From Octopus vulgaris (Eukaryota): a DNA stretch of 64,000 nt. The notes under the pieces are model-generated. The model had not been told where the DNA came from. It searched no databases and saw nothing but the letters and a program-made list of their open reading frames with translations. The DNA is taken from contig OX597816.1 of NCBI GenBank assembly GCA_951406725.2, forward strand, positions 80,414,001 to 80,478,000. Reading direction: 5' to 3'. Below, in pieces: positions 2,540 through 62,384 of this stretch. Both the position numbers and the translations under genes were made by a program. The first letter of the stretch is position 1. The number at the start of each line of letters is the position of its first letter.

Positions 2540-3200
2540 ACAGAGACAAATGATCATCTTGTTTCTAGGTGCCCAGCCTTCGCTGAAAAGGAGTACCTCA
2601 TAAGATATGACAGACTAGGGTAGTGCATCCACTGGAATGCTTGTAAATACTACAAAATTAAATCCCATGATAAGTGGTGCAGACACGATCCAGAGGAAGT
2701 AGTAAATGGCGAGGGCATCACCACCCTTTGGAACTTCCCAATACAAACAGACAGAAACATTGACTCCAATCGGCCAAACATTGTGATCAAGGGCTACAAC
2801 AAGGGAACTTGTCTCTTAATAGCTATGTATGTCCCACAAGATCAAAATGTCTCGAGAAAGCAATACGAAAAGTTTTCTCACAATAAAGGTCTCCAAATTG
2901 AAATCACAAAAATGTGGAAGCTTAGTACTACGATTATACCAGTAGTAATTCTTGCGTTGGGAATGATAAAGGAGGGAGCTGAGAAGAATATTAAGCAACT
3001 CCCTGGTAACTCCAATTTCCGTGAACTGCAAAAGATAACCTTGAAAGGTACAACACAGCCCATGTACTACGGAAAGTACTCTCCATTTAAAATAGAATAA
3101 ATGTGGCGATAATTATTTTAGCATGCATAGCAAAACAAAAATGCCTTTGCTACTCTTGGCTTCAGGAGGATGCCCGGTACTAAGGCAGCTGAAATAAATA
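2540..3200 (+). mobile_element. R4/Dong-clade non-LTR retrotransposon, 5'-truncated 3' fragment (CCHC remnant plus restriction-like endonuclease)
   Basis: ETNDHLVSRCPAFAEKEYLIRYD, LWNFPIQTDRNIDSNRPNIVI, TCLLIAMYVPQD, IPVVILALG; contains stops. Confidence 0.85.
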
Positions 3201-3217
3201 ATGAAAGGAAACCATAA

Positions 3218-3745
3218 ATGTGCGAAAAGTGGGGGGTGGTAGAGAGAGCCATGACGTGGTATGAGAACAAACCACAGAGAGCGGTAGAGTCGGAGACCAG
3301 CAAAAACGTCAGGGATTTCCCAATCCAAACAGGTCAGGTGCTAGAGCATAACAGACTGGACCTAGTGGTGGTGGACAAGATGCACCATATATACTGTATA
3401 GTTCAAGTTGAATGCTCCTTTAACCCACGAATAGTCAAGGAGAAAGACGGAAAGATAGATAAATACAACCATCTTAAGTGTGGAATAGCCCGGCTATGGA
3501 AAATGAAGAAGGTGAAGTTAGTGCCAATTATTGTTGGGTCATTGGAAACAGTATCAGAAGACATCAAGGGAAATATAAAGGAAATTGGAATAGATGCCCA
3601 GGACATCTGTTAGAAAAGGTTTGCCTCATTAGCACGACCAGAATAATCAGGAAAGTATTAGATAGCAGAAAATAATGGATAGCATGGTACCGTAGGCTGC
3701 AGGTAGCAAGCTCGCTACGCATGTAAGACTCCATGAAAAAGAGAA
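3218..3745 (+). mobile_element. R4/Dong-clade RLE-domain fragment with 3' UTR, ending at (TAA)n
   Basis: WYENKP..DFPIQT..HNRLDLVVVDK..KIDKY..LKCGIARLWKMKKVKLVPIIVGSLET; followed by (TAA)n at 3746-3787. Confidence 0.85.
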
Positions 3746-3787
3746 ATAATAATAATAATAATAATAATAACAACAATAATAATAATT

Positions 3788-4365
3788 GACATAGAAAAGT
3801 TATCGAAGGTGGTAGAGACTTTATAGAGCTAGAAAACTATTACAAAATAACCACCATATGACTACAGAAATACCTACTTCAGAAGCAAGGAAAGCCGATA
3901 TAGATAGCCATAAAAACTGTTTTCAGTCTTTAAGGAAGCTGTCAAATACAAAAAAGAAGTCATAGTACCTAACAACAACGAAGAAAAAGAAGAAACAACA
4001 GAAGCTGTAAAAAAAACTGAAATCCAAACTAAAACTGGTACAGCAACGCATTATCATATAACAATAGCAAGAAAACCCCGTAGATGGCAAATATTGAGTT
4101 AAGCTAAGCAGAAAAGAAATAGACAAAGCAAAATCCTAACAATGGCTGTGAAGCTCAGGACTGACAGCAGAGACTGAAGCATTTTTAATTGCAGTACAAG
4201 ATCGAAACCTTCCGACCAGAAATCACCAAAACCACGTAATCACCAAAACCAAGTAACTGCAGAATATGTGGTGATGGAGAAGAAACAAAAAATCATATTG
4301 TCTCTGGCTGCCCAATGCTGGCTAAGAAGGAACATATTTACAAACACGACAGTGTTGGGACACTG
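3788..4365 (+). mobile_element. R4/Dong-clade fragment (post-RT region plus CCHC knuckle), same family as the 50268-51152 copy
   Basis: WL*SSGLTAETEAFLIAVQDRNLPTRN..CRICGDGEETKNHIVSGCPMLAKKEHIYKHDSVGT; bounded by (TAA)n on both sides. Confidence 0.85.
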
Positions 4366-4389
4366 CTCTCTCACTCATTAATAATAATA

Positions 4390-4427
<38 letters not shown>

Positions 4428-4916
4428 GATTTCAAATTTTGGCACAAGGCCAGCAATTTCGGGGGCAGGGAGTCCACTTCGTGGATCACACTACTCGAAA
4501 CTGGTACTTATTTTATCGACCTCGAAATCATTCAAATCGAAAGTATGTGGCATCTCGGAGCGATTACAATACCAGTGATGGTAGGAGCAGTAGTAATAAG
4601 GAAAAAAAGGGAACTGGAAACTATATGAAAATGGTCCCTGGCTTGCCATCCATGCAAGATGTGCACAAAGATTCTTTTAACAGGTGCATCGTATGTATTC
4701 AGGTGTGCATTGTTGCTCTGAAAACGATAACCTTCCATGTAATTTTTTTTATATATAACGTTGATTTTATAAATGAACAATCGGGTGTGCTTATTTTAAT
4801 GGTGAATTACTTTGCATTAGATACCGTGAATGCATTTGGCAAGAAATGGAAACAAAATTGAAGGAAATAGAAAAAGGCTAATAATAATAATAATAATAAT
4901 AATTAATATTATTATA

Positions 4917-4957
<41 letters not shown>

Positions 4958-4958
<1 letters not shown>

Positions 4959-7900
4959 AGAGACCACCACACACGGCGTAGATGGAACAAGCAAATTAAT
5001 GCTGTGGTCATGAAGTGTTACTACCTGAGCAACCCGGTAGATGAAAATGATGCTCAAATTAGGGGTTACCGACAACGTATGTATGATCATTGGAGGAAAT
5101 GGATTGTTTCAACTCACCGAACAGAGACTATGTGATCAAGCTAGGGCAATAAGGAAAGATCGTTGGGTCACAGAAGTAGAGCTCGAAGCTATCAAAAGAC
5201 GGGTCTTGGAAAATTGCAGCTGAGATAACATTAAAAATACAGTTCTTACTAATACAAGTAGTCTCATAGCATAGGAAAGGAGCAGTGGTAGTTTACTTGA
5301 TGAGAGACATGTAGAAGATCTAAAAGAAGACAATAAAGCTAATGGCGATATGACAGATGAACAAAAAGCAATCTATGACAGAATAAAGGCAAGACTACTG
5401 GAGAACGATAGCGACATTATTTGAAACCTTAAAAAGGTTGATCGGTGGAAATTGAACCAAGAAACGAAAAATGTCAATAAAATTCTGAGATACATCAGAA
5501 CAAACAACATCACAGAAACAAATCATTTGATCAAGGCAGCAAGAATTATTGTAGCAGGAAACGTGGGTGTTGATGCCAAGAAAAAGAAATATGATAGAAG
5601 TGACAAAAGGAAAGAGCCATGGTGGAAAAGAAGAATACCGGCAGGGTTAGATATGCTCTCGAAGGAAATTTCTGTGTTAGACCGAAAAGAGAAAGGGGAG
5701 CTAAAAGCGAACAAAAATACAGGGCACTGAAAAAGAAGTAAACTATTGAAAGAAAAGGCCTGAAAGTGGTAATGGAGGAACTGATATAGCGCCTTGTTGC
5801 AAAGAAAGCAGAGATGGTAAGATACGACCAAAGAATGAAGGGTTACCACCAGACTAAGTTTTTCAGAGTAGATCTATAAGGAAATAAATGGAGAGTGTAG
5901 AAATGAAAAGCTGATACCAGATAACAATGAAAGTCAGAGGTTTTGGAGAGACATGTGGAGCAAGGACAAGGAGCACATAAAGAATGCCGAATGGTTGCAA
6001 GAACTGAAACAAACAGTAGCCTGCCCCAAACAGGCAGAACTACTAATTCCAGCTAGGGAAGTGAAGGAAATCAGAAAAAATGAGAAACTGGAAGGCTCCG
6101 GGACCAGTTGTATTTGAAGGCTACTGGATCAAAAGATTTGATGAATGTCATGCACGAATAACTGCGCAACTCAACACCTTGTTAAATACCGACCAAGTAA
6201 CACCAGGGTGGTTGACATTGGGTACAACAGTACTGTGCTTGAAAGACATCGAAAAAGGCAATACGGTAGACAATTACAGGCCGATATCCTGTTTGCCACT
6301 TATGAGGAAATTATTGAGTCCTGCCACATGAGCAGAAGGGTTGCAAGCGTAAGTGCAGGGGTACCAAGATTAACTCCTGATAGACAAAACTGTACTTAGA
6401 GACTGAAAGAGGAGGAAAAGTAACTATCGTAAGGTGTACGTTATGATCATATACTCTTGGATTATGGGGTGTATAAACCTATTTGGTATTGTATCGAAGT
6501 TGAGTGATTGCTTAGAAAAAGTATGGTGAATTGGAGGACGGACCTGACAGCATACGGAATAAGTATAGGGACAGTAGAAATAAGGAGGGACATCTTCCAA
6601 GGCACTGCTTTTCCCTACTGATCTTTGTACTGTGCTTGATACCACTAACGCTAATTCTAAGGAAAGCAAAAGCTGGGTATGTATTCAAAAGCCACCAACA
6701 AAAAATCAACCATTTGTTATCCATGGGTGACATCAACCTTTATGGAAAAGATGAAGCCCAAGTCAGTTTCTTCGTTGACACGGTGTATACTTCCAGTGCT
6801 GATATCAGAATAGAGTTTGGATTAAGAATGAGTGGTGTGTTAGTCTTGAAGAGAGGCAAAATCAAATGTATGGACGGGCTATCGATACCGTCGGGGAGGT
6901 TATGCAGCAGATAGAAGAGATGGGCTATAAGTACTTGGGGATTTTGGAAATGGATAAATTGATGGGGAAAGAAATGACAGAAAACTTTAAGGTGGAGTAC
7001 TTACGCAGATTGAGACTGATACTTAAGTTGAAATTAAGCGGACGGAATAATATTGAAGCTGTCAACACATAGGCGGTTTCACTCATTAGATATGGAGCAG
7101 GAGTAATTGCATGGACAGTAGATGAACTAAACAACTTAGACAGAAAGACAAGGAAGTTGCTAACTAGATATGGGACACTCCACTCAAAAAGTGACACAGA
7201 CAGACTGTATGTACCAAGAAAAAGGGGGATGCGAACACAGCATTAGAGTAGAAGAAAGCAACATAGCATGGAATGTGAAAAATGCCACAGAACCGCTTTT
7301 ATTAGAAGGTCAGGCCTGTGTAGGATGAAAGATTGCAATGATAAAGCACTGTCCAATCAATTGAAAACGATTGAAACAGAAATTAGGTGGGTAAAAATGC
7401 ATGGCCAATTTAATATGGATGTTGAAGATAAGACAGGCAGAGAAAAAAGATGGCTGTGGATGACTAGAAATGATTTAAAACAGGAAACGGAGGCTCTAAT
7501 ATGTGCTGCCTAAGAGCAAGCACTAACAACTAAATACATAAAATATAGAATAGACATCACACCAGTAAGTGATAAGCCATGTACGCCACTAGCCCAGAAG
7601 GAATATAAGAGACTCCACGAAATTGGACACTTTACAACAAGTATGGATTTGACAGAGCAAAAAATTGGTACGAACACAAACCCGAAGGCATCATCGAAAA
7701 TGATAATGCAAAGATCCTCTGGGATTTTATGATTTAGTGCGTGGATGAGATAGAGAATAGGAAGCCATACATAGTCTTAATTGAGAAAGAAAGCAAACTA
7801 TGCTGGCGCATAGATATAGCATGCCCAGCTGGCAACAAGTTATGCAATAAGGAAGAAAGAAAAGTCGAGAGATATGACAGGTTAGCTTGGGAGGTTAAGC

Positions 7901-12754: not shown

Positions 12755-13300
12755 AATGAGGGAGGACTGCATGCCATGAAAGTGACACTGGGGTAAAATA
12801 TACGAAGCCTAGTATACCCATCATGACTACCAGTCTGATAAGGGAATGCCAGGCCGATGCATCACAACCATATGTGCGCGACATGGTAATCTCATATCAA
12901 GATAAACAGCGCATGATCTTGCAGGTAGAGCTCAATTAGAATTTTCTTCAGGTCGAATAGCCCATCTCACTCAAAAGGTCCCTGAATAAGGATTGTTTAA
13001 GAATGCTCAACGAAACACCCATGTTTCCAGAGGGGAATTATTCAAACCTCAAAGAATTACTCTCAACACATGGCTATGATGCTCCCACACTACTTCTGCT
13101 TGTGATCAGAGATGCACATATCGTCAGCCACTAAGGGACATGCTCAACTGGTTATGGTCAAGCCAGTGACAAATAAATCTGTAGTATTGAGTACAATATT
13201 TGATGTAGCACATTTTTTTTTTATACCAAGACAAAACATATACATGATAACACTTCCAATCAGTTGAAGTCAGAATCTATGAGAACCATTGCTTGGTACG

Positions 13301-13364: not shown

Positions 13365-13867
13365 GCAGTGAACTGGCAGAAACATTAGCACGCCGGATGA
13401 AATGATTTGCGGTATTTCGTCTACCGCTACGTTCTGAGTTCAAATTCCGCTGAGGTCGACTTTGCCTTTCATCCTTTCGGGGTCGATTAAATAAGTACCA
13501 GTTACATACTGGGGTCGATATAATCGACTTAATCCAGGTGTCTGTCCTTGTTGGTCCCCTCTGTGCTTAGCCCCTTGTGGGTAGTAAAGAAATAGGTATT
13601 TGGTCTGCCGCTACATTCTGAGTTCAAATTCCGCTGAGGTCGACTTTGCCTTTCATCCTTTCGGGATCGATTAAATAAGTACCAGTTACGCACTGGAGTC
13701 GATATAATCGAGTTAATCCGTTTGTCTGTCATTGTTTGTCCTCTCTTTATTTAGCCCATTGTGGGTAGTAAAGAAATAGGTGTTTCGCCTTTCTGTACGT
13801 TCTGAGTTCAAATTCCGCCGAGGTCGACTTTGCCTTTCATCCTCTCGGTGTCGATAAAAAGTACCAA
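13365..13867 (+). mobile_element. SINE family A, tandem multimer (head plus repeated ~180 bp body)
   Basis: tRNA-like head (CTGGCAGAA..., B-box-like GAGTTCAAATTCC); the core GTCGACTTTGCCTTTCATCC occurs three times. Confidence 0.9.
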
Positions 13868-15382: not shown

Positions 15383-15772
15383 CTGTCTTTACGTTCTGAG
15401 ATTGAATTCTGCCGAGTTCGATTTTGCATTTTGTCCTCTCAGGTCGACAAAATAAACGCAGTTTGATCACTAGGATCGATGTAATCGACTTACTTCCGCC
15501 GCATGAACTTGCTGGCCGTGTACCAAAAGTTGAAACCATCATTATTATTTATTAAGGCGGCAAGCTGACAGACTCGTCAGCACGCCGGGCAAAATACTTA
15601 GCGGCATTTCGTCCGTCGTGTTTCCGTTCTGGGATCAAATTCCGCAGCGGTCAAATTTGCCTTTCATCCTTTCGGGTTCGATAAATTAAGTACCAGTGAA
15701 ACACTGGGGTTGATGGAATCGTTTAGTCTCCTCCCGCGAAATTTTAGGCCTTGTGCCTTAATAGAAGGAATT
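15383..15772 (+). mobile_element. Two adjacent SINE family A copies (15383-15540 partial; 15555-15772 near full length)
   Basis: AAGGCGGCAAGCTGACAGA head, CCTTTCATCCTTTCGGG core, GGCCTTGTGCC tail. Confidence 0.85.
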
Positions 15773-16417
15773 ATTTTTATTTGATGAAAACTCTTAGCTT
15801 ATTTTGCTGGGTATGATGGAAAATGAAAAATGGTACGATGGAAAATGTTAGCTGTCCACAGCCAGCAGACTAAGGTGACACTTGTTTACTGGTCACGCTT
15901 CAAGAACCCTGCGAAAAATTATTGCAGTTCCAAGCAAATATGATTTTTGCAGGTGTTCTATTATTATTATTATTATTATTAACATGGTGATTGGTATCAT
16001 CAGTAATGCATCAATCTGAAAACAGCCTCACTGTTACTCTACACTGATCGGTAGAATCATTACATATGAGTCGGTTTAGTCAACTTCAATTCAAAGAAAT
16101 TGTTTGTCCTCATACTAAAGTTAGATATAGCAGGAATCATTATTCATTATCATGACTATGGTTTTAGTTGTTCTCCTGATAATATGAATACTGATATGAC
16201 CGATCTTATAAATGTGTGACTACAATACAAGGCTACAAACATTTATTACTACCATCATCGCCAGCAACACTACAAGGTCTCACACCAACACCTGAATCGC
16301 TAAATTATTAAAAACACCACCTACATCATTGCACTAACAACCCCATCTCTTTTCAATAAAGGGAGACGCAACCCCAAGTATCCACCACTACCACCTCCTC
16401 GTCATCATTATCATGGT

Positions 16418-16448
<31 letters not shown>

Positions 16449-16908
16449 AGCAGTAGCAGCATCATTATGATCAGGAAAATGGCAATAATAGATCAAACTA
16501 ACTATATCCAGCTATTTGTCTCCCTGGAAAAGTATTCAGTATTTAACACTCATAAGTTTATTAAATGTGACAGCTGGTGTTCCTACCCTTACTCTTGTTG
16601 TTGTTATATTTGAATTTTTGTAGCTGAAATTGTCAATGATGTGGTGGTTATGGTGTTTCTTTCCTTAATCTTGTTCTAAGCATCCTACTCATCGATCATA
16701 ACAAACCAGAGAGATAGATACAAACAACATCGCCAATACAAATAAACAGTCAGATAATGACAGGTGTAACATCACATTCTACTAGACTTAGGTGTCTACG
16801 TGTGTGAGTGTTTGTGCGTCTATATTGCATGTGTGCTGTGTTTGGTTGTGTCAGTGTGTGGGAATACACACGCTCATATCTATATCTGTATATTTATATA
16901 TAAACATA

Positions 16909-17762
16909 CGTAATCTGATCAATAAGTATCCGGAATGTTGCAATAGTAACGAAGCTAAAGCGTACAGAGTGAAGCCCCTGGGCACATATTGAGCGCACTA
17001 AGTTTTAATGTTCCAGCTCACTTCTGCTGTTTACAGCAGTAAATGAAAGGAAGGTGTGTAGCGTGTATTCGTTGCATTGACTATGACTGAGAAAGTTGAG
17101 CAGAGAATCTGCATCAAATTTTACCCAAATTTTGGCGATACCTGCTCAGAGGCTCACGCAAAGTTTTCATCGTTCTCGACACAATGAAGGAGATTTTGGG
17201 CATCTGAAACCCGAGTGTTTTTTTTTTTTTTTTTTTTTTTGGTCAGCTGAAAAAAGTTTTGGCAGACACGCGTCTCATACCCAAATTTTCAGTGATAATG
17301 GACTGAACTGAACCGTAACTAATCTGCACATCCTCTAATAACTCATGGGTGGTGATTCAACGATTTCCCCTCACAAATTAACCTACATCTGCATTTTTTC
17401 TCAGTTCTATTGGTTGCAGGTCTCCCAGAACGTTCATCACTATCGACACTTTCTCGGCCAACTTGGAAACGTCTGAACCACTCGTACAGTTGAGTGCAGC
17501 TCACACACTTCCTGCTACTTTGCGTAGGCCTCTGAGCAGGTATCGCCAGGACAACTTATTCTGTCATGGTCAATGCGACAATTACACGCAACACATCTTC
17601 CTTCTAAGCACTACTGTAAACAACGGGAGTGAGCTAGGACGTTAAAACTTACTGTGCATGCACAACAGAGTTCAAGGTCAATCTTTGTTCTAGCGACTTC
17701 ACTCTGCGTGCTTTAGCTCCGTTACTATGGCAACAATCCGGATACTTATTAATTAGACCTCG
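16909..17762. mobile_element. Non-autonomous mariner (Tc1/mariner) foldback built from two transposase 5' ends
   Basis: TA at 16907-8 and 17763-4; inverted arms of about 190 bp or more; + strand MTEKVEQRICIKF, - strand LYEWFRRFQVGRESVDSDERSGRP..ISYGSVQSIITENLGMRRVSAK. Confidence 0.9.
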
Positions 17763-17842
17763 TACATGTGTGGAAACATATACTACACACACATTCACAA
17801 AAGTGTACGAGCATATCTATCTGCCTTTTCGTCTATCTCCCT

Positions 17843-18996: not shown

Positions 18997-19037
<41 letters not shown>

Positions 19038-19073
19038 GAAAGAATGGAGTCGAACGAAGATGTTAACAAAATT

Positions 19074-19165
19074 CCTTTACTCCCGATACGTTTCGAAGAC
19101 AGCATATTTTCATTTTCAAAGGAATAAAGGGTGCATTATGCAATCTTCTCATCAGGAAAGAAAGG
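19074..19165 (-). ncRNA. Type I hammerhead ribozyme motif (left arm)
   Basis: CCUUUCUUUC-CUGAUGA-GAAGA..UCUUC-GAAA-CGU-AUC-GGGAG-U-AAAGG; core intact, stem III weak. Confidence 0.65.
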
Positions 19166-19286
19166 GAGCCTCTCTCGACAACAAGACAAACAAAAATTTC
19201 GATGATTGCCTACATGGCATTATTGCTTTGTTTACCATGTAGGCAATCATCGACATTTTTGTTTGTTTTGTTGTCGAGAGAGGCTC

Positions 19287-19379
19287 CCTTTCTTTCCTGA
19301 TGAGAAGATTGCATAATGCACCCTTTATTCCTTTGGAATGAAAATGTGCTGTCTTCGAAACATGTGTCGAGAGTAAAGG
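19287..19379 (+). ncRNA. Type I hammerhead ribozyme motif (right arm)
   Basis: Stem I CCUUU-CUUUC / GAGAG-U-AAAGG; CUGAUGA at 19297-19303; stem II GAAGA/UCUUC with long extension; GAAA at 19357-60; C-AUGU-GUC with predicted cleavage after 19368. Confidence 0.8.
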
Positions 19380-19576
19380 AATTTTGTTAACATCTTCGTT
19401 CGACTCCATTCTTTCATTTATTCATATACAACACACAAATTTCTACACATGAACCCGGAGTTTCTACCCTTGACAGGTCACTTCAACTGTGTTTTCTGAC
19501 GTGATTTGCTACCCAGGTTTCGGTTAAACGAATTTTCCATGCTAACCATAAACATAGGATAATTCATTCACCTACT

Positions 19577-19650
<74 letters not shown>

Positions 19651-21494: not shown

Positions 21495-21619
21495 AGGCAT
21501 CCTTCCAATGTCAACTGTTGTCATATGAATGACGAGTTCTGCTACTAGCGTAGTCCACTGCGGCCAAGGAGAAAATGTGAACAAAGTGATAAGAGCTGAT
21601 TATGAACACTTTATTATTA

Positions 21620-22220
21620 GGGCGGCAAGCTGGCAGAATCATCAGCACTCCGGGCGAAATGCTTTGCGTCTGCCGCTACGTTCTGAGTTCAAATTCCGCC
21701 GAGGTCGACTTTGCCTTTCATCCTTTCGGGGTCGATTAAATAAGTACCAGTTACGCACTGGAGTCGATATAATCGACTTAATCCGTTTGTCTGTCCTTGT
21801 TTGTCCTCTCTCTGTGTTTAGCCCCTTGTGGGTAGTAAAGAAATAGGTATTTCGCCTGTCTTTACGCCCGAGTTCAAATTCCGCCGAGGTCGACTTTGCC
21901 TTTCATCCTTTCGGGGGTCGATTAAATAAGTACCAGTTACGCACTGGGGTCGATGTAATCGACTTAATCCGTTTGTCTGTCTTTGTTTTTCGTCTCTGTG
22001 TTTAGCCCCTTGTGGGTAGTAAAGAAATAGGTATTTCGTCTGCCTTGAAGGTGGCGAGCTGGCAGAATCTTTAGCCCGCCGGGCGAAATGCTTTGTGGTA
22101 TTTCGTCGCCGCTGCGTTCAAAATCCGCCGAGGTCGACTTTGCCTTTCATCCTTTCGGGGTCGATTAAATAAGTACCAGTTACGCACTGGGATCGATGTA
22201 ATCGACTTAATCCCCTCTCT
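21620..22220 (+). mobile_element. SINE family A tandem multimer followed by a further headed copy (from about 22048)
   Basis: Three cores; same AAAGAAATAG/GTATTTCG junction as at 13365-13867. Confidence 0.9.
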
Positions 22221-37794: not shown

Positions 37795-38185
37795 CTGCTA
37801 AAGGCACAAGGCCGGAAATTTGGTGGGGGGGAAGCAGTGAATTACATCAACCCCAGTGTTTCACTGGTACGTAATTTATTGACCATGAAAGGATGAAAGC
37901 AAAGTCGACCTCGATGTAATTTGAACTCAGAACGTAGCGACGGACGAAATACCTATTTCTTTACTACCCACAAGGGGCTAAAGACAGAGAGGACAAACAA
38001 GGACAGACAAACGGATTAACTCGATTATATCGACGCCAGTGCGTAACTGGTACTTATTTAATCGACCCCGAAAGGATGAAAGGCAAAGTCGACCTCGGCG
38101 GAATTTGAACTCAGAACGTAGCGACAGACGAAATACAGGTAATCATTTCGCTCGGCGCGCTAACGTTTCTGCCAGCTCGCCGCCT
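37795..38185 (-). mobile_element. SINE family A dimer, with extra 3' tails at 38200-38260 and 38320-38372
   Basis: Reverse complement of head GGCGGCGAGCTGGCAGAAACGTTAGC and two cores. Confidence 0.9.
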
Positions 38186-38819
38186 AAATAATAATAATAA
38201 ACCTTTCCGCTAAAGGCACAAGGCTTGAAACTTTGAGGGAGGGGACTAGTCGATTACTAGTGTTTCAATAATAATAACAACAATAATAATAGTAATAATA
38301 ATAATAATTTTTTTCTCTTGTAGCTACAAGGCTTGAAATTTTTGGGGAGGGTGTTAGCTAATTACATCGATCCTTAGTCCTTCCGATATCGATGTACTAA
38401 AGTTCCAATCAAGTTGTAAAGTTGACGCATTTAAATATACTCATCTTATTTTGAGGCTTTGTGTCAAGGTACAATTTATTATTATTATCATCTTTATTTT
38501 AATTTTTCATAATGGCAAGGTTTTACGTAACCAAACGATTTCATTTGCATCTTCCTAACCAAGACTAAGGATCATAATGTTGTCAATACCTTTTTTAAAA
38601 TGATTATCAATATTGCCATATGGAATTACTAATACAAAAATTGACTTAACAAAGATATATACCAGTTTGTGTAATTCAATCTTGTTTTAAACAGGCAACA
38701 ATAAATTTGGCGGAGCCCCAACGATGCCACAGCCTGTAGACTACAACGCGCAAGAGTAATAGGATATATGTAATATTAAATATTCTGTGTATCTAACATA
38801 GTTTCACACACACCACACA

Positions 38820-42099: not shown

Positions 42100-43570
42100 A
42101 TACTATTGTCCATTCCGAACAGGTATACAATTTTCAATAAAATCATTCTCCCTCACTCTTCTTCTAACTTCACATGAGGCGTAATGTTTGTAAAATGGAA
42201 ATATTAAAAACGTTTCGTTACTGCATAATTTTTAATGATTTCGTAATGGAGTTCTATCGGATATCAAGGTCACTAAGTTCTTGCTGTGTAGTTGCGTGCG
42301 TTCTGAAAATGAATTATCTGACGAGCCAATAAATTTTTGTTCACAATTCGGACACGTTGTGCTACAGATCAGTTTTCTGCTTTTACAGTTCAAATTTACA
42401 TTTCGGATTATGATTCTTCTGGTTTTTCTTTTGATATACTGACTGGCTTGTACAGTATTGTAATACAATGTTCGACTTTCCATTTGGATACCATGAATGT
42501 TTTATCATTGTTATGTAGGACAAACCTTACCTTTGTAAACAAATGCTTAATGATTTTCTGTTGTCTTTTACTTTGAAAGACTGTTCTAGCAGTTACAAAA
42601 TGTTTTAGCTCATTATTTTGTCTGATGAAATGCATGTTTGATTTGGTGACGTTAAAAATGTTCTGGTAAGATTGCATGATATTTTTCTGGTCTTGTCTTT
42701 TCCTTGTCTTTCTGTGAGTTATTCTATAGATATTTGATTTGCACGTTGTATACTCTCTTGCATATGTAGAGGTGAATATTCTAGTTTGAGAAGAAACACC
42801 TCGAGGTTGTCTTTGGTATATACATCATGAACAACAGCACAAATCTTCTCGGCTAAACAGTATGGGTGTTACATTAAGTAAGCACTGGATATCATGGATT
42901 CAAGTATAGTCACTGATGTTTATTTGGCTCATTAGAATACATATCCTCTATGATGTTGATTTTTAATATTTAATTATCATTATAACGAAAAATATTAATT
43001 TTCTATTGCTCAATTCCTTTGCAAATTTCAGAGTTGAAAGTAGAGTGTTCAGACGAATGTTGAAGTCTTCTAAAATGACTACGTCTAAATTAGTAAACAA
43101 TCATCAGGATAAATTTCCCATGCACTCAATATCTTCTAAAATCAGAGCTTTAGCTTTCTTCAACTGTTTGATACAAGTTTTTGTTCAAAGCATCGCATTA
43201 CTAAGTTTGTAAAACTGGAGCAAAAGTGGTTCCCATGTTGATCCCTCTAATTTGAAGATGATATTTTCAAATATGAAAATTGAATGCATTGTTTTCTGGT
43301 GTAAGGCTGACTACTCTATGGTGAATCTGCAGGGAATCGCCTCTCTGTGTTTTGACTCAATATTTGATTGTCCATATTCCTAAATTGTGTGAAATACATC
43401 AAACCTAGCAAAGAATACATTTGATTCTGCTTTTGAGGGTTTGACAAGTCGGGGCATCAATACCACCCGAATAAAACTCGATATAAGGGTGCATGGTAAT
43501 TTCAAAATGTCAATAAAATGCTTATGCAATGACTAGAATATTCCGGACTAGTTATGATATAGGAATTTAG
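42100..43570 (-). mobile_element. Decayed Penelope-like element (RT plus GIY-YIG endonuclease)
   Basis: QIRGINMGTTFAP (RT motif) near 43220-43255; NLNCKSRKLICSTTCPNCEQKFIGSSDNSFSERTQLH (Penelope-type GIY-YIG) at 42285-42395; many stops. Confidence 0.8.
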
Positions 43571-46274: not shown

Positions 46275-46655
46275 AATTTTGGCATAAGGTCAGGAACTTC
46301 GGGGGAGGGGTTATTCGATTACATCGACATCAACATTTTAACCTTAAGTAACTACCAGTTGAGCGTTTGGTCGATGCAATCAACTCCCACCCTTCCCCGA
46401 ACTTGCTAGTCCTCTGCCAAAATTTGAAACCAATATTAATATACTATATTATATAAGGAGGTAAGATGGCAATCGCTGTGGACAAAATGCTTAGCGGCAT
46501 TTCTTCCGACTCTATATTCTGAGTTCAAATGACAAGTCGACTCTGCCTTTCACTTTTTAGGTCGATGAAATAAGTACCAGTTGAGGGATCGATGTAATCG
46601 ACCTACCCACTCTCCCCAAATTTGCTGGCCTTGTGCATAAAAATTTGAAACCAAT
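46275..46655. mobile_element. Cluster of diverged SINE family A fragments in both orientations
   Basis: TTCTGAGTTCAAAT..GTCGACTCTGCCTTTCA..AAGTACCAG..GCTGGCCTTGTGC; inverted tail at 46275-46330. Confidence 0.7.
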
Positions 46656-46916
46656 TTTGTTATAAATTAATATATTACTGAATTACTAAATGATTTATTG
46701 TAAAACTAATGAAGCCAATAGCAGCACAGTTTTAGTCCTCTTCAAATACTGGACTTTGAAAGAAAGTATATAATATCTATGAATAATATGCTTCAACCAA
46801 AACTCATTAGAGATACAATGGTGTCAATGAGAGTGAAGAGGCAATTCTTAAGGTTCAGTATCTTTTCAAGGCATTAATAAAGTAACAGAATAAGTACGGT
46901 GTATAGAGTGTAAACT

Positions 46917-50267: not shown

Positions 50268-51150
50268 CAGTAGTTTTATTTTTATAGCGTGCTTTCACCT
50301 CGCTACCGAGCGCAGCTCTGTGTGCCTTGGGTATGTGCTGTGATTTGTTGTGATGCTCTGATGGTTATTGAATGGAAAGTGTTCTGTGTAGGATGTGTGC
50401 AGTGCCTATTAGTGCAATTTTCTGTATGTTATATGTGTTTGTAAGTCCTGATGTTTTTGTTATGTATTTGTCTGAATATTTTTTTATCATGCCTAATGCA
50501 CCTACTATGATAGGAATTGTTTCTGTTTTCAGATTCCACATTCTAGTTACCTCTATTTCTAGGTCTTTGTATTTTGAGAGTTTCTCCATTTCTTTTAGAG
50601 ACACGTTGTCATCTGCCGGTATTGATACATCAATTAGAAAGCATTTTTTTTCTTCATGATCTCTGACAACTATATCTGGTCTGTTGGCCTTAATTTCTCT
50701 ATCTGTGTGTATCGGCATATCCCAGAGTATGGTTGCTTTCTCGTTTTCTGTGACCTTTTCTGGTGTGTGCCTATACCATCTTTTTTCTGTTGTTATTCAA
50801 TAATGTTGGCATAGCTTCCAATGTATGTAGGTTCCAACTCTGTCATGTCTGTGAATATATTTCTTCTTAGCCAGGACTGGGCAGCTAGAGATAATATGAT
50901 TTATTGTTTCTTGTCCATCTCCACATATTCTGCAGTTACTTGTAATATTTCTTTTCATTACATGTTTTTGGTAATTTCTGGTGGGGAGGCATTGGTCTTG
51001 TGCTGCAATTAAAAATCCCTCTGTTTCTGCTTTAAGTCCTGAGCTTCTCAACCATTTCTGGGATTTTTCTTTGTCTATTTCTTTTGCGTTTAGTTTAGAC
51101 CAGTATTAGTTAGTCCAGTATTAGTTTAGTCCAGTATTAGTCCAGTATTA

Positions 51151-60099: not shown

Positions 60100-62245
60100 T
60101 TTCGTGAACTGGATTTTGTCGAGTCATATCGAAAGAATACCATACTGTCCTATCCACTGAATATGGCCAATAATATTCTAAAACGCCACAGATCGTTTCA
60201 TACTTTACACACACACAGATGGTAAAGCTAGAAGCCATTGTCAATGGACGTAGCATACCAACTAACCTAATGCCAACAAGTCAGGGTCACTTCAAACAAA
60301 CAACATCCTCATTGATATAGCTATCTGACCTAATTCCAACCTACAGGACTCACAAGCCAGGACTCACAATCGCACCAACAACAGCCTGCTACTGATACTA
60401 CATTGGAAGCACTTGTTTGGCACCACTACTTGTCCTGATTCCACCCAGCCCTACTGTTGCAAGTCAAGTTTCACTGCCACTACGGCAACAACAACAACAA
60501 AAACCTGCTACTGCTGCTACAATAGGACCACTAACCAATGAACCTGCCAATATAGAAAAACCACTACTATGCCCACGTCAAAAACCCTGTCGTTATCATT
60601 CTAAAGGCAACTGAAGATTTGGCCCCAGCGGCACCAACAACAAGGGACGCTGTACTTTTTTCCATGTTACCTTATGCCGTAGACTTGTTAAGGGCACCTG
60701 TTCATATGGTATAATGAGAAAAACTGCCCTCACCTCCACCCCAAATACTGTCCTAAATATAAAGTCCATGGCCCTGGTCCTAAATATGGATGCACAAAAG
60801 GCAATGGATGCACCTTCTTCCATCCTAAACTGTGCCAAACTTCTGTGTCACTAAAGATGTGCTTGAACCCAGAATTCAACCACCACCATCTGAAGGGCAT
60901 AAAACGATCGAAAAATAAATATAAACAGCAACAGAGGAGACCTGTGACAACAACAAAACAAAATACAGCCATATTTCACCTCCTACAAACCGAACAACGA
61001 AGACAGAACTATGGAAAAGCCATAACACCAAATAACATAAACATGAACTATGTATCATCTGACCAAGTATCAAACCAAAGAGGCAACTCTTTTTTACTAA
61101 CTTATCTAGAAAATATGAAGGCCGACCTAAGCCAGGAGATCCCACGAGCTATCAGCAACCATTCAAGTAAAACACAAGGAACACCCCCACCACCAACTAG
61201 AAAATCACACACACACAGCTCCATACAAAAACTACCCTTATTGCTACCTCTGAACAACATAAAACATGACAGAGATATTAGAACAATGCAAATATCAAAC
61301 TACCCTTACCTCTACATTCCTGTTAATTGTACGTGAACCAACCCATCACTCACTCAAAAATGGAAGATCCCATACATAGAGAGTTGGCTTACCTAAACGG
61401 CACATTGCTTCCTTTTCTTTACCCTTACTGAAACTCACCTAAACAGCACACATATGAATGCCGAGGTAAAAATAATATAAATTTCACAATCATCCGTGCA
61501 GATCACACAGACCAAAATAAAGTGCGGACAGCCATCATTCTCCATGACTCCTTTTTAGTTGATGCCAAGGATATATTTTCCAATGGTCATTGTAAATATA
61601 TATCACTATTCAACAAGGCCAAATACATAATCATTGTTGGTCTTTACAGGCCTCCCGAAGCACATCTAAAGTGTTTTGAAGTGTGCCTCAACAAAATCAA
61701 GCCCTTTCCTCAAAAATACAACTCCGGAAACATACTAGTGATGGGTGATTTTAACCTCCCTCATATAAACTGGCTCACAAATACTCTGATGTTAGGCAAA
61801 TGCTCTACATCAGATAAAGCTGCAGAAGAATTACTCTTTAATCTAAGGGATAAATTCTTCCTGACTCAGCTCGTGCTCGAACCAACAAGACAGAATAAAA
61901 CGATCTTGGATCTAATATTAACCAACCACTCTAGCTCCTTTCACAGTATTTCAGTCGATAAAACTCTTCTCTCAGACCACGACATGATACTCTGCAATTT
62001 TAATTTCCGGCATATCAAAACCAAACCAGCCAATCCCACTCCACTGCACTTATTTGCCAACATGAACTACCACAAAGCGGACTGGGGAGTAATCAGAAAG
62101 GATCTGTCCTTCATCGACTGGTCCTTCACTCTCAGTTCCACTGACACTGAGATCGCATGGCAACACTTTGAGGACATTGTCACATATACATGCTCAAAAC
62201 ACGCTCCTACGAAATCCACTAACACAAACAGAAATCGGCTCCCTA
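60100..62245 (+). mobile_element. CR1-group LINE 5' portion: decayed ORF1 with tandem CCCH fingers plus ORF2 AP-endonuclease, 3'-truncated
   Basis: LTETHL, GLYRPP, MGDFNLPHINW, EPTR..LDLILTN, SDHDMI, NYHKADW; ORF1 Cys/His arrays at 60585-60895. Confidence 0.9.
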
Positions 62246-62269
62246 GTATATTCGAAGGTATATATATTG

Positions 62270-62384
62270 CTGTAAGTTCTCAGATTCACACACTTATTGC
62301 AGCTGTCCTACATCTTTTCTAAGCCCTCGGAAGGTTGAGCCTTTCTCGAGACCCTTAAAGCCAGGAACTTTTTAGCACCTTCTC
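62270..62384. mobile_element. Mariner-type terminal fragment truncating the LINE
   Basis: TTAAAGCCAGGAACTTTTTAGCACC resembles the inner part of a mariner TIR. Confidence 0.5.

Follow-up and report, generated by a model that had tools for sequence, protein, structure and literature searches.

Results

The analysed window comprises 64,000 nt of Octopus vulgaris contig OX597816.1 and contains a palindromic insertion extending from ca. 19033 to 19579, with (TA)n sequence at both ends. From left to right, we could distinguish a (TA)n tract forming the left target site (19002..19034, no strand, boundary within a few nt as judged from the sequence), an inverted and 5'-truncated pseudo-LTR-like copy (left arm, 19032..19217, minus strand), 17 nt between the arms (19218..19234, plus strand), a direct pseudo-LTR-like copy with a U-rich 5' flank (right arm, 19235..19421, plus strand), a one-sided extension of 158 nt that may represent a tail or a 5' leader of the element (19422..19579, plus strand) and the right (TA)n target site followed by (GA)n (19580..19618, no strand). 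Both arms were delimited by comparison with each other, and the right copy, the 17 nt in front of it and the extension by alignment of family contigs. The foldback with inverted arms of ca. 186 bp and 17 nt between them, as described in the original prediction, is real: the arms are 186 and 187 nt long and agree in 179 of 188 columns, differing by six substitutions and two indels. They are joined head to head at 19217/19218, with the hammerhead-sense strand pointing outward from the centre on either side. The outward-facing 3' end of the left arm meets (TA)n ca. 50 nt past the cleavage position. No second copy of the element was found in the 64-kb window using blastn and nhmmer. Two Rfam matches were rejected, namely a MIR2599 match below the gathering threshold over the palindrome centre, which only reflects the hairpin, and a SECIS match (E 8.2).

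The window contains further repeats. Another foldback at ca. 16900-17770 has diverged inverted ends (72% over 206 nt) and shares no DNA similarity with the hammerhead palindrome, to which it is unrelated as first proposed; one frame within it resembles the N-terminus of a mariner transposase. Fragments at 2624-6914 and 50365-51105 presumably belong to restriction-endonuclease-like non-LTR retrotransposons while 61432-62322 encodes a frame that we assume to be an APE-type endonuclease. One interspersed repeat with internal tandem duplications was seen at 13370-13866, 15541-15779, 21611-22213, 37841-38194 and 46346-46675, and we assume it to be a SINE family.

The element belongs to a high-copy repeat family. 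Twenty of the 24 sequencing runs listed (four organisms) contained 29-47% of the sampled words. Contigs from four runs were aligned to 19180-19579 (400 nt) at 80% likeness, yielding 2065, 1838 and 1248 aligned contigs for three DNA-type runs from three organisms and 166 for the fourth run. Summed contig depth, which is a sign of a high-copy family and not a copy number, reached 10^5-10^6 in two runs, in which single junction contigs had depths of 35-61. In run X7, depth was 32 over the left-arm part and ca. 70,000 over the hammerhead.

Based on these alignments, the extent of the element had to be revised. Family coverage was unbroken through 19422-19579 and, among the 32 pieces listed (with 5322 further pieces), three bridged position 19421, extending 31 nt or more to either side, with 9-18 differing letters each. 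The apparent right flank is therefore element sequence, and the original interval of 19032..19421 missed the 158-nt extension up to ca. 19579, which is found on the right side alone. Similarly, the length given for the 17-nt spacer was correct but its letters are family sequence. Four of the 32 pieces listed aligned across it and stopped exactly at 19218, with leftovers of 5, 18, 57 and 509 nt, and the inverted arm of another copy reached 12 nt into it. Thus, the 17 nt are no true spacer but belong to the right copy, which they extend on its 5' side.

Family copies end and join at various positions. Among the 24 of 382 loose-end entries listed, ends running into (TA)n were seen at 19428 (23 in X7 and 11 in X6), which corresponds to the place where the left arm meets (TA)n, and at 19570 (3 in X6). 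Six of seven joints were of the inversion type (19225/19392, 19227/19293, 19217/19281, 19217/19531, 19204/19398 and 19204/19548) with contig depths of 35-61. In three of the six, the shorter side measured 30 nt or more; joints with less can, at 80% likeness, stem from other repeats. The locus's own junction at 19217/19218 was spanned by no piece among those listed. Inverted head-to-head joins of 5'-truncated copies at variable breakpoints, as known from EN+ Penelope-like elements (PLEs), are thereby seen at this locus and in six joints. The palindrome is built anew at each insertion and is not a fixed unit.

The right arm carries an intact-looking type I hammerhead (19287..19379, plus strand), characterized by descriptor search, Rfam scan and folding. 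CUGAUGA is located at 19297-19303 and GAAA at 19357-19360, with G10.1-C11.1 formed by 19304/19356. Stem I consists of 5+5 bp with a bulged U19374, the stem II region (19304-19356) places 53 nt between the core boxes, and helix III consists of one A-U and one C-G pair around the loop AUGU. C17 is found at 19368 and cleavage is predicted after C19368. All features of the type I class (CUGANGA, GAAA, NUH core and three closing helices) are present, with helix III being only 2 bp long and unpopulated in the monomer. Using a strict hammerhead descriptor, this site was the sole match in 64 kb while none of 200 dinucleotide shuffles matched. Pair probabilities for the isolated 95-nt right-arm piece were 0.93-1.0 for stem I, 0.71-0.96 for stem II and 0.01-0.02 for helix III. 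Scanning 191 nt with the Rfam model RF00163 (Hammerhead_1) gave 18.1 bits (E 0.06), short of the gathering score of 34, with 49 nt of stem II being skipped; the whole-window Rfam scan returned no Hammerhead_1 match. Descriptor and folding thus bear out the proposed type I hammerhead with a bulged stem I and a long stem II. One detail had to be corrected, as the palindrome to be considered for dimerization is AC[AUGU]GU, an 8-nt register, and not ACAUGU. Position 19364 is A in 67-71% of family depth across four runs (G19364A), which makes all 8 nt of this register palindromic, as needed for dimerization. With its 2-bp helix III, the family hammerhead is expected to cleave solely in dimeric form or when assisted by protein. 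A further candidate at 13127 (minus strand, CUGACGA...GAAA) combines an 8-bp stem I with a stem II of only 2 bp; it fails the strict descriptor and is probably due to chance.

Contrary to the initial description of intact cores on both arms, only the right core is intact. The left arm contains a damaged type I hammerhead (19074..19165, minus strand) with CUGAUGA at 19155-19149, GAAA at 19094-19091 and C17 at 19085. It reads GAAAC-GU-AUC, which places C15.2 opposite A16.2 and shortens the loop by 2 nt. The 15.2-16.2 pair that closes helix III in type I hammerheads is therefore missing and the site fails the strict descriptor.

Folding of transcripts from the two strands was dominated by the duplex (predicted energies of -312.6 and -306.6 kcal/mol). 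Each transcript contains one sense hammerhead, intact on the plus and damaged on the minus strand, with its own antisense ahead of it, which precludes dimer formation within a single RNA. Functionally, the two strands do not give essentially the same RNA as had been assumed. The suggested competition between duplex and ribozyme folding is predicted to be one-sided: in the read-through RNA, each of the five hammerhead pairs tested had a probability of 0.0. Further, stem I formation was not predicted for the 362-nt right copy folded alone. Given the location of the motifs on opposite strands, the damage to the left motif and the duplex of ca. 186 bp predicted for a read-through RNA, the copy analysed here probably lacks ribozyme activity. 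Any RNA transcribed from the locus would act as dsRNA.

Within the 93-nt hammerhead region, the variants listed affect 16 positions, all of which lie outside the 17 core positions (P = 0.028, based on 40 of 62 variant entries). Of ten variants listed at paired positions, six keep and four break the pair, two of the latter at the outermost stem II pair; the number of pairs kept is weak evidence as a C-to-T change leaves G-C as G-U by default. The two arms have the same allele as each other at 21 of 25 variable positions listed within the arm. At three of the remaining positions, the left arm has the family-majority base and the right arm does not. Both arms descend from one source and have decayed independently since. 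In run X6, A>G was seen at 10 places compared with 3, 4 and 4 in the DNA-type runs while other change types differed by 0-3. This excess is a weak hint at possible A-to-I editing, X6 being RNA by guess only and from another individual than the DNA-type runs.

For comparison with bona fide PLEs, control loci were collected. A decayed, 5'-truncated Penelope-like reverse transcriptase (RT) with a C-terminal GIY-YIG remnant and many stops and frameshifts lies at ca. 42100-43350 (minus strand) of the window. Its endonuclease piece had 96 RT+GIY-YIG protein matches (HMMER, E up to 0.001), with Pfam being run on six. Pfam and a word-indexed search missed pieces of the remnant that were recognised by a full HMMER search. 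Its CxxC linker presumably indicates the Neptune clade. PLE proteins were found starting from this remnant and an alignment of 27 retrieved 17 PLE loci from genome bins. These Penelope-like RT loci (L024-L040) are located within prokaryotic genome bins, apparently as co-assembled host DNA, and several carry clear hammerheads. The strict descriptor matched 9 of 17 loci, which are not independent since several share a bin or contig (L032, L037 and L040 one genome bin, L033-L035 one contig). The match in L026 lies within the ORF and was treated as chance; palindromes in L039 and L028 are not hammerhead pseudo-LTRs and were left out of the controls. The RT locus L032 carries a hammerhead on its 3' side and, upstream of the ORF, an inverted end of ca. 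350 bp that also bears a hammerhead. In L031, the 3' repeat stops ca. 30 nt past C17 in (TA)n and the 5' repeat runs into leader and ORF, mirroring the difference between left and right arm at 19033-19579.

No RT-GIY-YIG ORF adjoining or matching it was found within the window and the 17 control PLE loci, nhmmer detected no DNA similarity to these loci, and the best tblastn score among 220 PLE-related proteins was 21.9 bits. The PLE remnant of the window was rejected as parent, showing no DNA similarity to the element. Naiad_Ovul, Naiad_Obim and Hydra-1_Obim were likewise rejected because 0 of 9 element-derived words occurred in the Craig 2021 supplement, where line breaks or copy-specific changes could mask a match. 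In the 158-nt extension, a frame on the plus strand (19449-19562) opens at an ATG and is interrupted by one TGA. Neither the short frame from ATG 19449 in protein comparisons nor a 61-codon read-through returned relatives, leaving a coding role of the tail without support. Over this frame, family contigs contain a 1-nt insertion close to 19503 together with a shortened T run and a deletion of 12 nt, indels that give a hint of frame keeping. Scanning with the hammerhead pattern yielded 0 matches in metagenomes, 0 in prokaryote genomes and four in viral contigs, the latter without cleavage-site context and judged to be chance. Relaxing the pattern yielded 19 loci in which stem I and stem II never occurred together and which were also judged to be chance. 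PLE relatives were absent from viral contigs.

Discussion

Based on our analysis, the locus very probably consists of two Penelope-type 3' ends that were joined head to head in a TA tract and have a tail on one side only. The inverted Penelope-type pseudo-LTR pair named first in the original prediction is supported by the family anatomy, the control PLE loci and published descriptions. As the parent ORF was not found, PLE membership is inferred. As described for PLEs, insertions can show an inverted 5'-truncated copy, a one-sided tail of 30-40 bp and a bias for (TA)n (PMC8557442), with the inverted pseudo-LTR being shorter than the direct one and mostly arranged head to head (PMC3846280). The element shares the head-to-head join, shorter inverted copy, one-sided tail and (TA)n target with EN+ PLE ends (Penelope/Poseidon, Neptune, Hydra and Naiad), as well as the short distance of a few tens of nt between hammerhead and 3' end (PMC3846280, PMC8557442). 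The (TA)n preference of Neptune, Hydra and Naiad is seen at both ends here, where any target-site duplication would be masked by the repeat. Besides the missing link to an RT-GIY-YIG ORF and the lack of DNA similarity to the control loci and the remnant, further observations speak against PLE membership: the tail measures 158 nt instead of the published 30-40 bp, the hammerhead does not have the additional nucleotide that typically follows A9 in minimal hammerheads of metazoan PLEs, and stem II is much longer than in the control loci. In contrast to the EN+ PLE ends in the same sources, no ORF is located between the repeats.

The hammerhead itself also resembles those of PLE pseudo-LTRs (PMC4209133). 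It is type I with a CUGANGA/GAAA core, G10.1-C11.1 and a U-rich 5' flank, and its short palindromic helix III implies dimer cleavage. For PLE hammerheads, cleavage was reported to be low and dependent on dimers, and Schistosoma mansoni PLE pseudo-LTRs contain hammerhead pairs on opposite strands 100-700 bp apart (same source), comparable with the opposite-strand pair found here at ca. 140 bp. Penelope-13_HM is likewise listed with hammerheads on both strands (PMC8557442). Unlike the hammerheads in PMC4209133, ours lacks an additional nucleotide behind A9, separates the core boxes by 53 nt and has a bulged 10-bp stem I. Among PLE motifs examined in the PMC8557442 supplement table, only two spike-moss motifs have loops of ca. 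30-35 nt. Naiad 'HHR_half_core' entries including Naiad_Ovul and Naiad_Esco (same source) have core halves 35-50 nt apart, (TA)n and cephalopod hosts in common with the element. However, the element has all three stems, and the supplement contains none of its nine words. The Naiad_Obim 3' end is a different sequence.

The insertion most likely formed as follows. After the (TA)n tract had been cut by a GIY-YIG/RT protein of a PLE, the 3' pseudo-LTR with its hammerhead would be copied twice from the same source element. The left-arm copy would start at the pseudo-LTR end and the right copy ca. 158 nt further on, within the tail or leader. Both copies would stop early, 17 nt apart, and would then be joined head to head, which would result in outward-facing 3' ends and a tail on one side only. 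The anatomy, the high-copy family, the varying junctions, the TA target and the hammerhead motif were observed directly, while the enzyme and the succession of steps are inferred. We slightly favor a route with priming from both cut strands, while snap-back self-priming, as proposed for inverted PLE ends (PMC3846280), is a plausible but less probable route. The PLE protein of the anole cuts and extends both strands at AT-rich DNA and reverse transcribes from two internal sites that delimit a tail; hammerhead cleavage is not needed by the protein while the hammerhead cuts only with the protein (all PMC11167929). This Anolis carolinensis element, PAc/Poseidon, resembles the family analysed here in having two 3' ends downstream of an uncut hammerhead and an AT-rich target, and offers a mechanism for the tail. 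The two differ in that the PAc ORF starts in stem II and the PAc tail is coding, whereas here only the possible short ATG 19449 frame without relatives is present. No sign of a junction overlap was seen, as the alignment of other copies stops exactly at 19218 and the family continuation of the left arm differs there at the first base. This leans slightly towards two primings, though alignment clipping could mask a short overlap.

Other readings were weighed against the head-to-head pair of Penelope-type ends. According to a further-reaching joint claim, the family would be a short non-autonomous element mobilised by PLEs and not debris of full-length PLEs; it would carry an active hammerhead variant with a stem II of ca. 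50 nt missed by Rfam thresholds and published short-loop descriptors, the 158-nt tail would perhaps serve as a cis signal for the PLE protein, and foldbacks at very many TA tracts would seed hairpins that are A-to-I edited when transcribed. Taken as a whole, we consider this unlikely.

It is quite improbable that the family is a non-LTR retrozyme, i.e. a tandem hammerhead repeat of 150-450 nt producing circular RNA, with the locus being a rearranged inverted monomer pair. The canonical-like core with G10.1 straight after A9, the 2-bp helix III and the palindromic 4-nt loop would fit animal retrozymes (PMC7229834), as would the high copy number and the lack of any ORF found; the non-coding, high-copy nature and canonical-like type I core are shared with the animal non-LTR retrozymes in PMC7229834 and bioRxiv 10.64898/2026.07.22.740005, the latter proposing that retrozymes derive from PLE pseudo-LTRs. 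However, copies terminate in (TA)n and join inverted, and neither the locus nor the joints within the 400 nt examined contain head-to-tail tandem monomers, the only indication being one back-jump in a single contig. The retrozyme-like alternative of the original prediction is thus unsupported within these 400 nt; a monomer could exceed this length, and tandem arrays may occur elsewhere in the genome. Retrozymes are defined by head-to-tail monomers and circular RNA, neither of which was observed for our element in the DNA and contigs analysed.

Even less probable is a Tc1/mariner-type MITE with long terminal inverted repeats, a TA duplication and a hammerhead-like sequence arising by chance. 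Both arm ends read ...CATT|TA, resembling a TA duplication, and a mariner-like foldback lies 2 kb away, although the two have no DNA similarity. Fixed terminal inverted repeats that bound the insertion around a shared interior were not observed: the right arm end is no insertion boundary, being crossed by the three bridging pieces among the 32 listed, junction centres vary among copies, and depth in X7 collapses over the left-arm part relative to the hammerhead. The MITE reading is already largely refuted. We give still less weight to a regulatory switch maintained by the host, in which duplex formation would control ribozyme cleavage of a host transcript. It would be compatible with the intact right core and the occurrence of family sequence in X6, the presumed RNA run, but the arm differences, also from the family majority, are scattered as in neutral decay, left helix III is damaged, and the duplex dominates predicted folding completely. 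Finally, a false palindrome due to misassembly can practically be dismissed: no listed piece spans the junction, but the arms disagree in 9 of 188 columns, three of which show the family-majority base in the left arm and not in the right.

In conclusion, the insertion pattern described here is already known and the locus is ordinary retroelement debris. Only the long stem II, with its 53 nt between the boxes, and the 158-nt tail are mildly unusual. Our literature search found no paper on the element family or on a cephalopod hammerhead with a long stem II; the family may be listed in Repbase or Dfam. Because the long-stem-II hammerhead is missed both at the Rfam threshold and by the short-loop descriptors in print, PLE hammerheads may have been undercounted, and the Naiad 'half cores' merit a second look. 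Further, a family with two 3' ends ca. 150 nt apart and many head-to-head junctions is well suited for deciding between both-strand priming and snap-back in PLEs.
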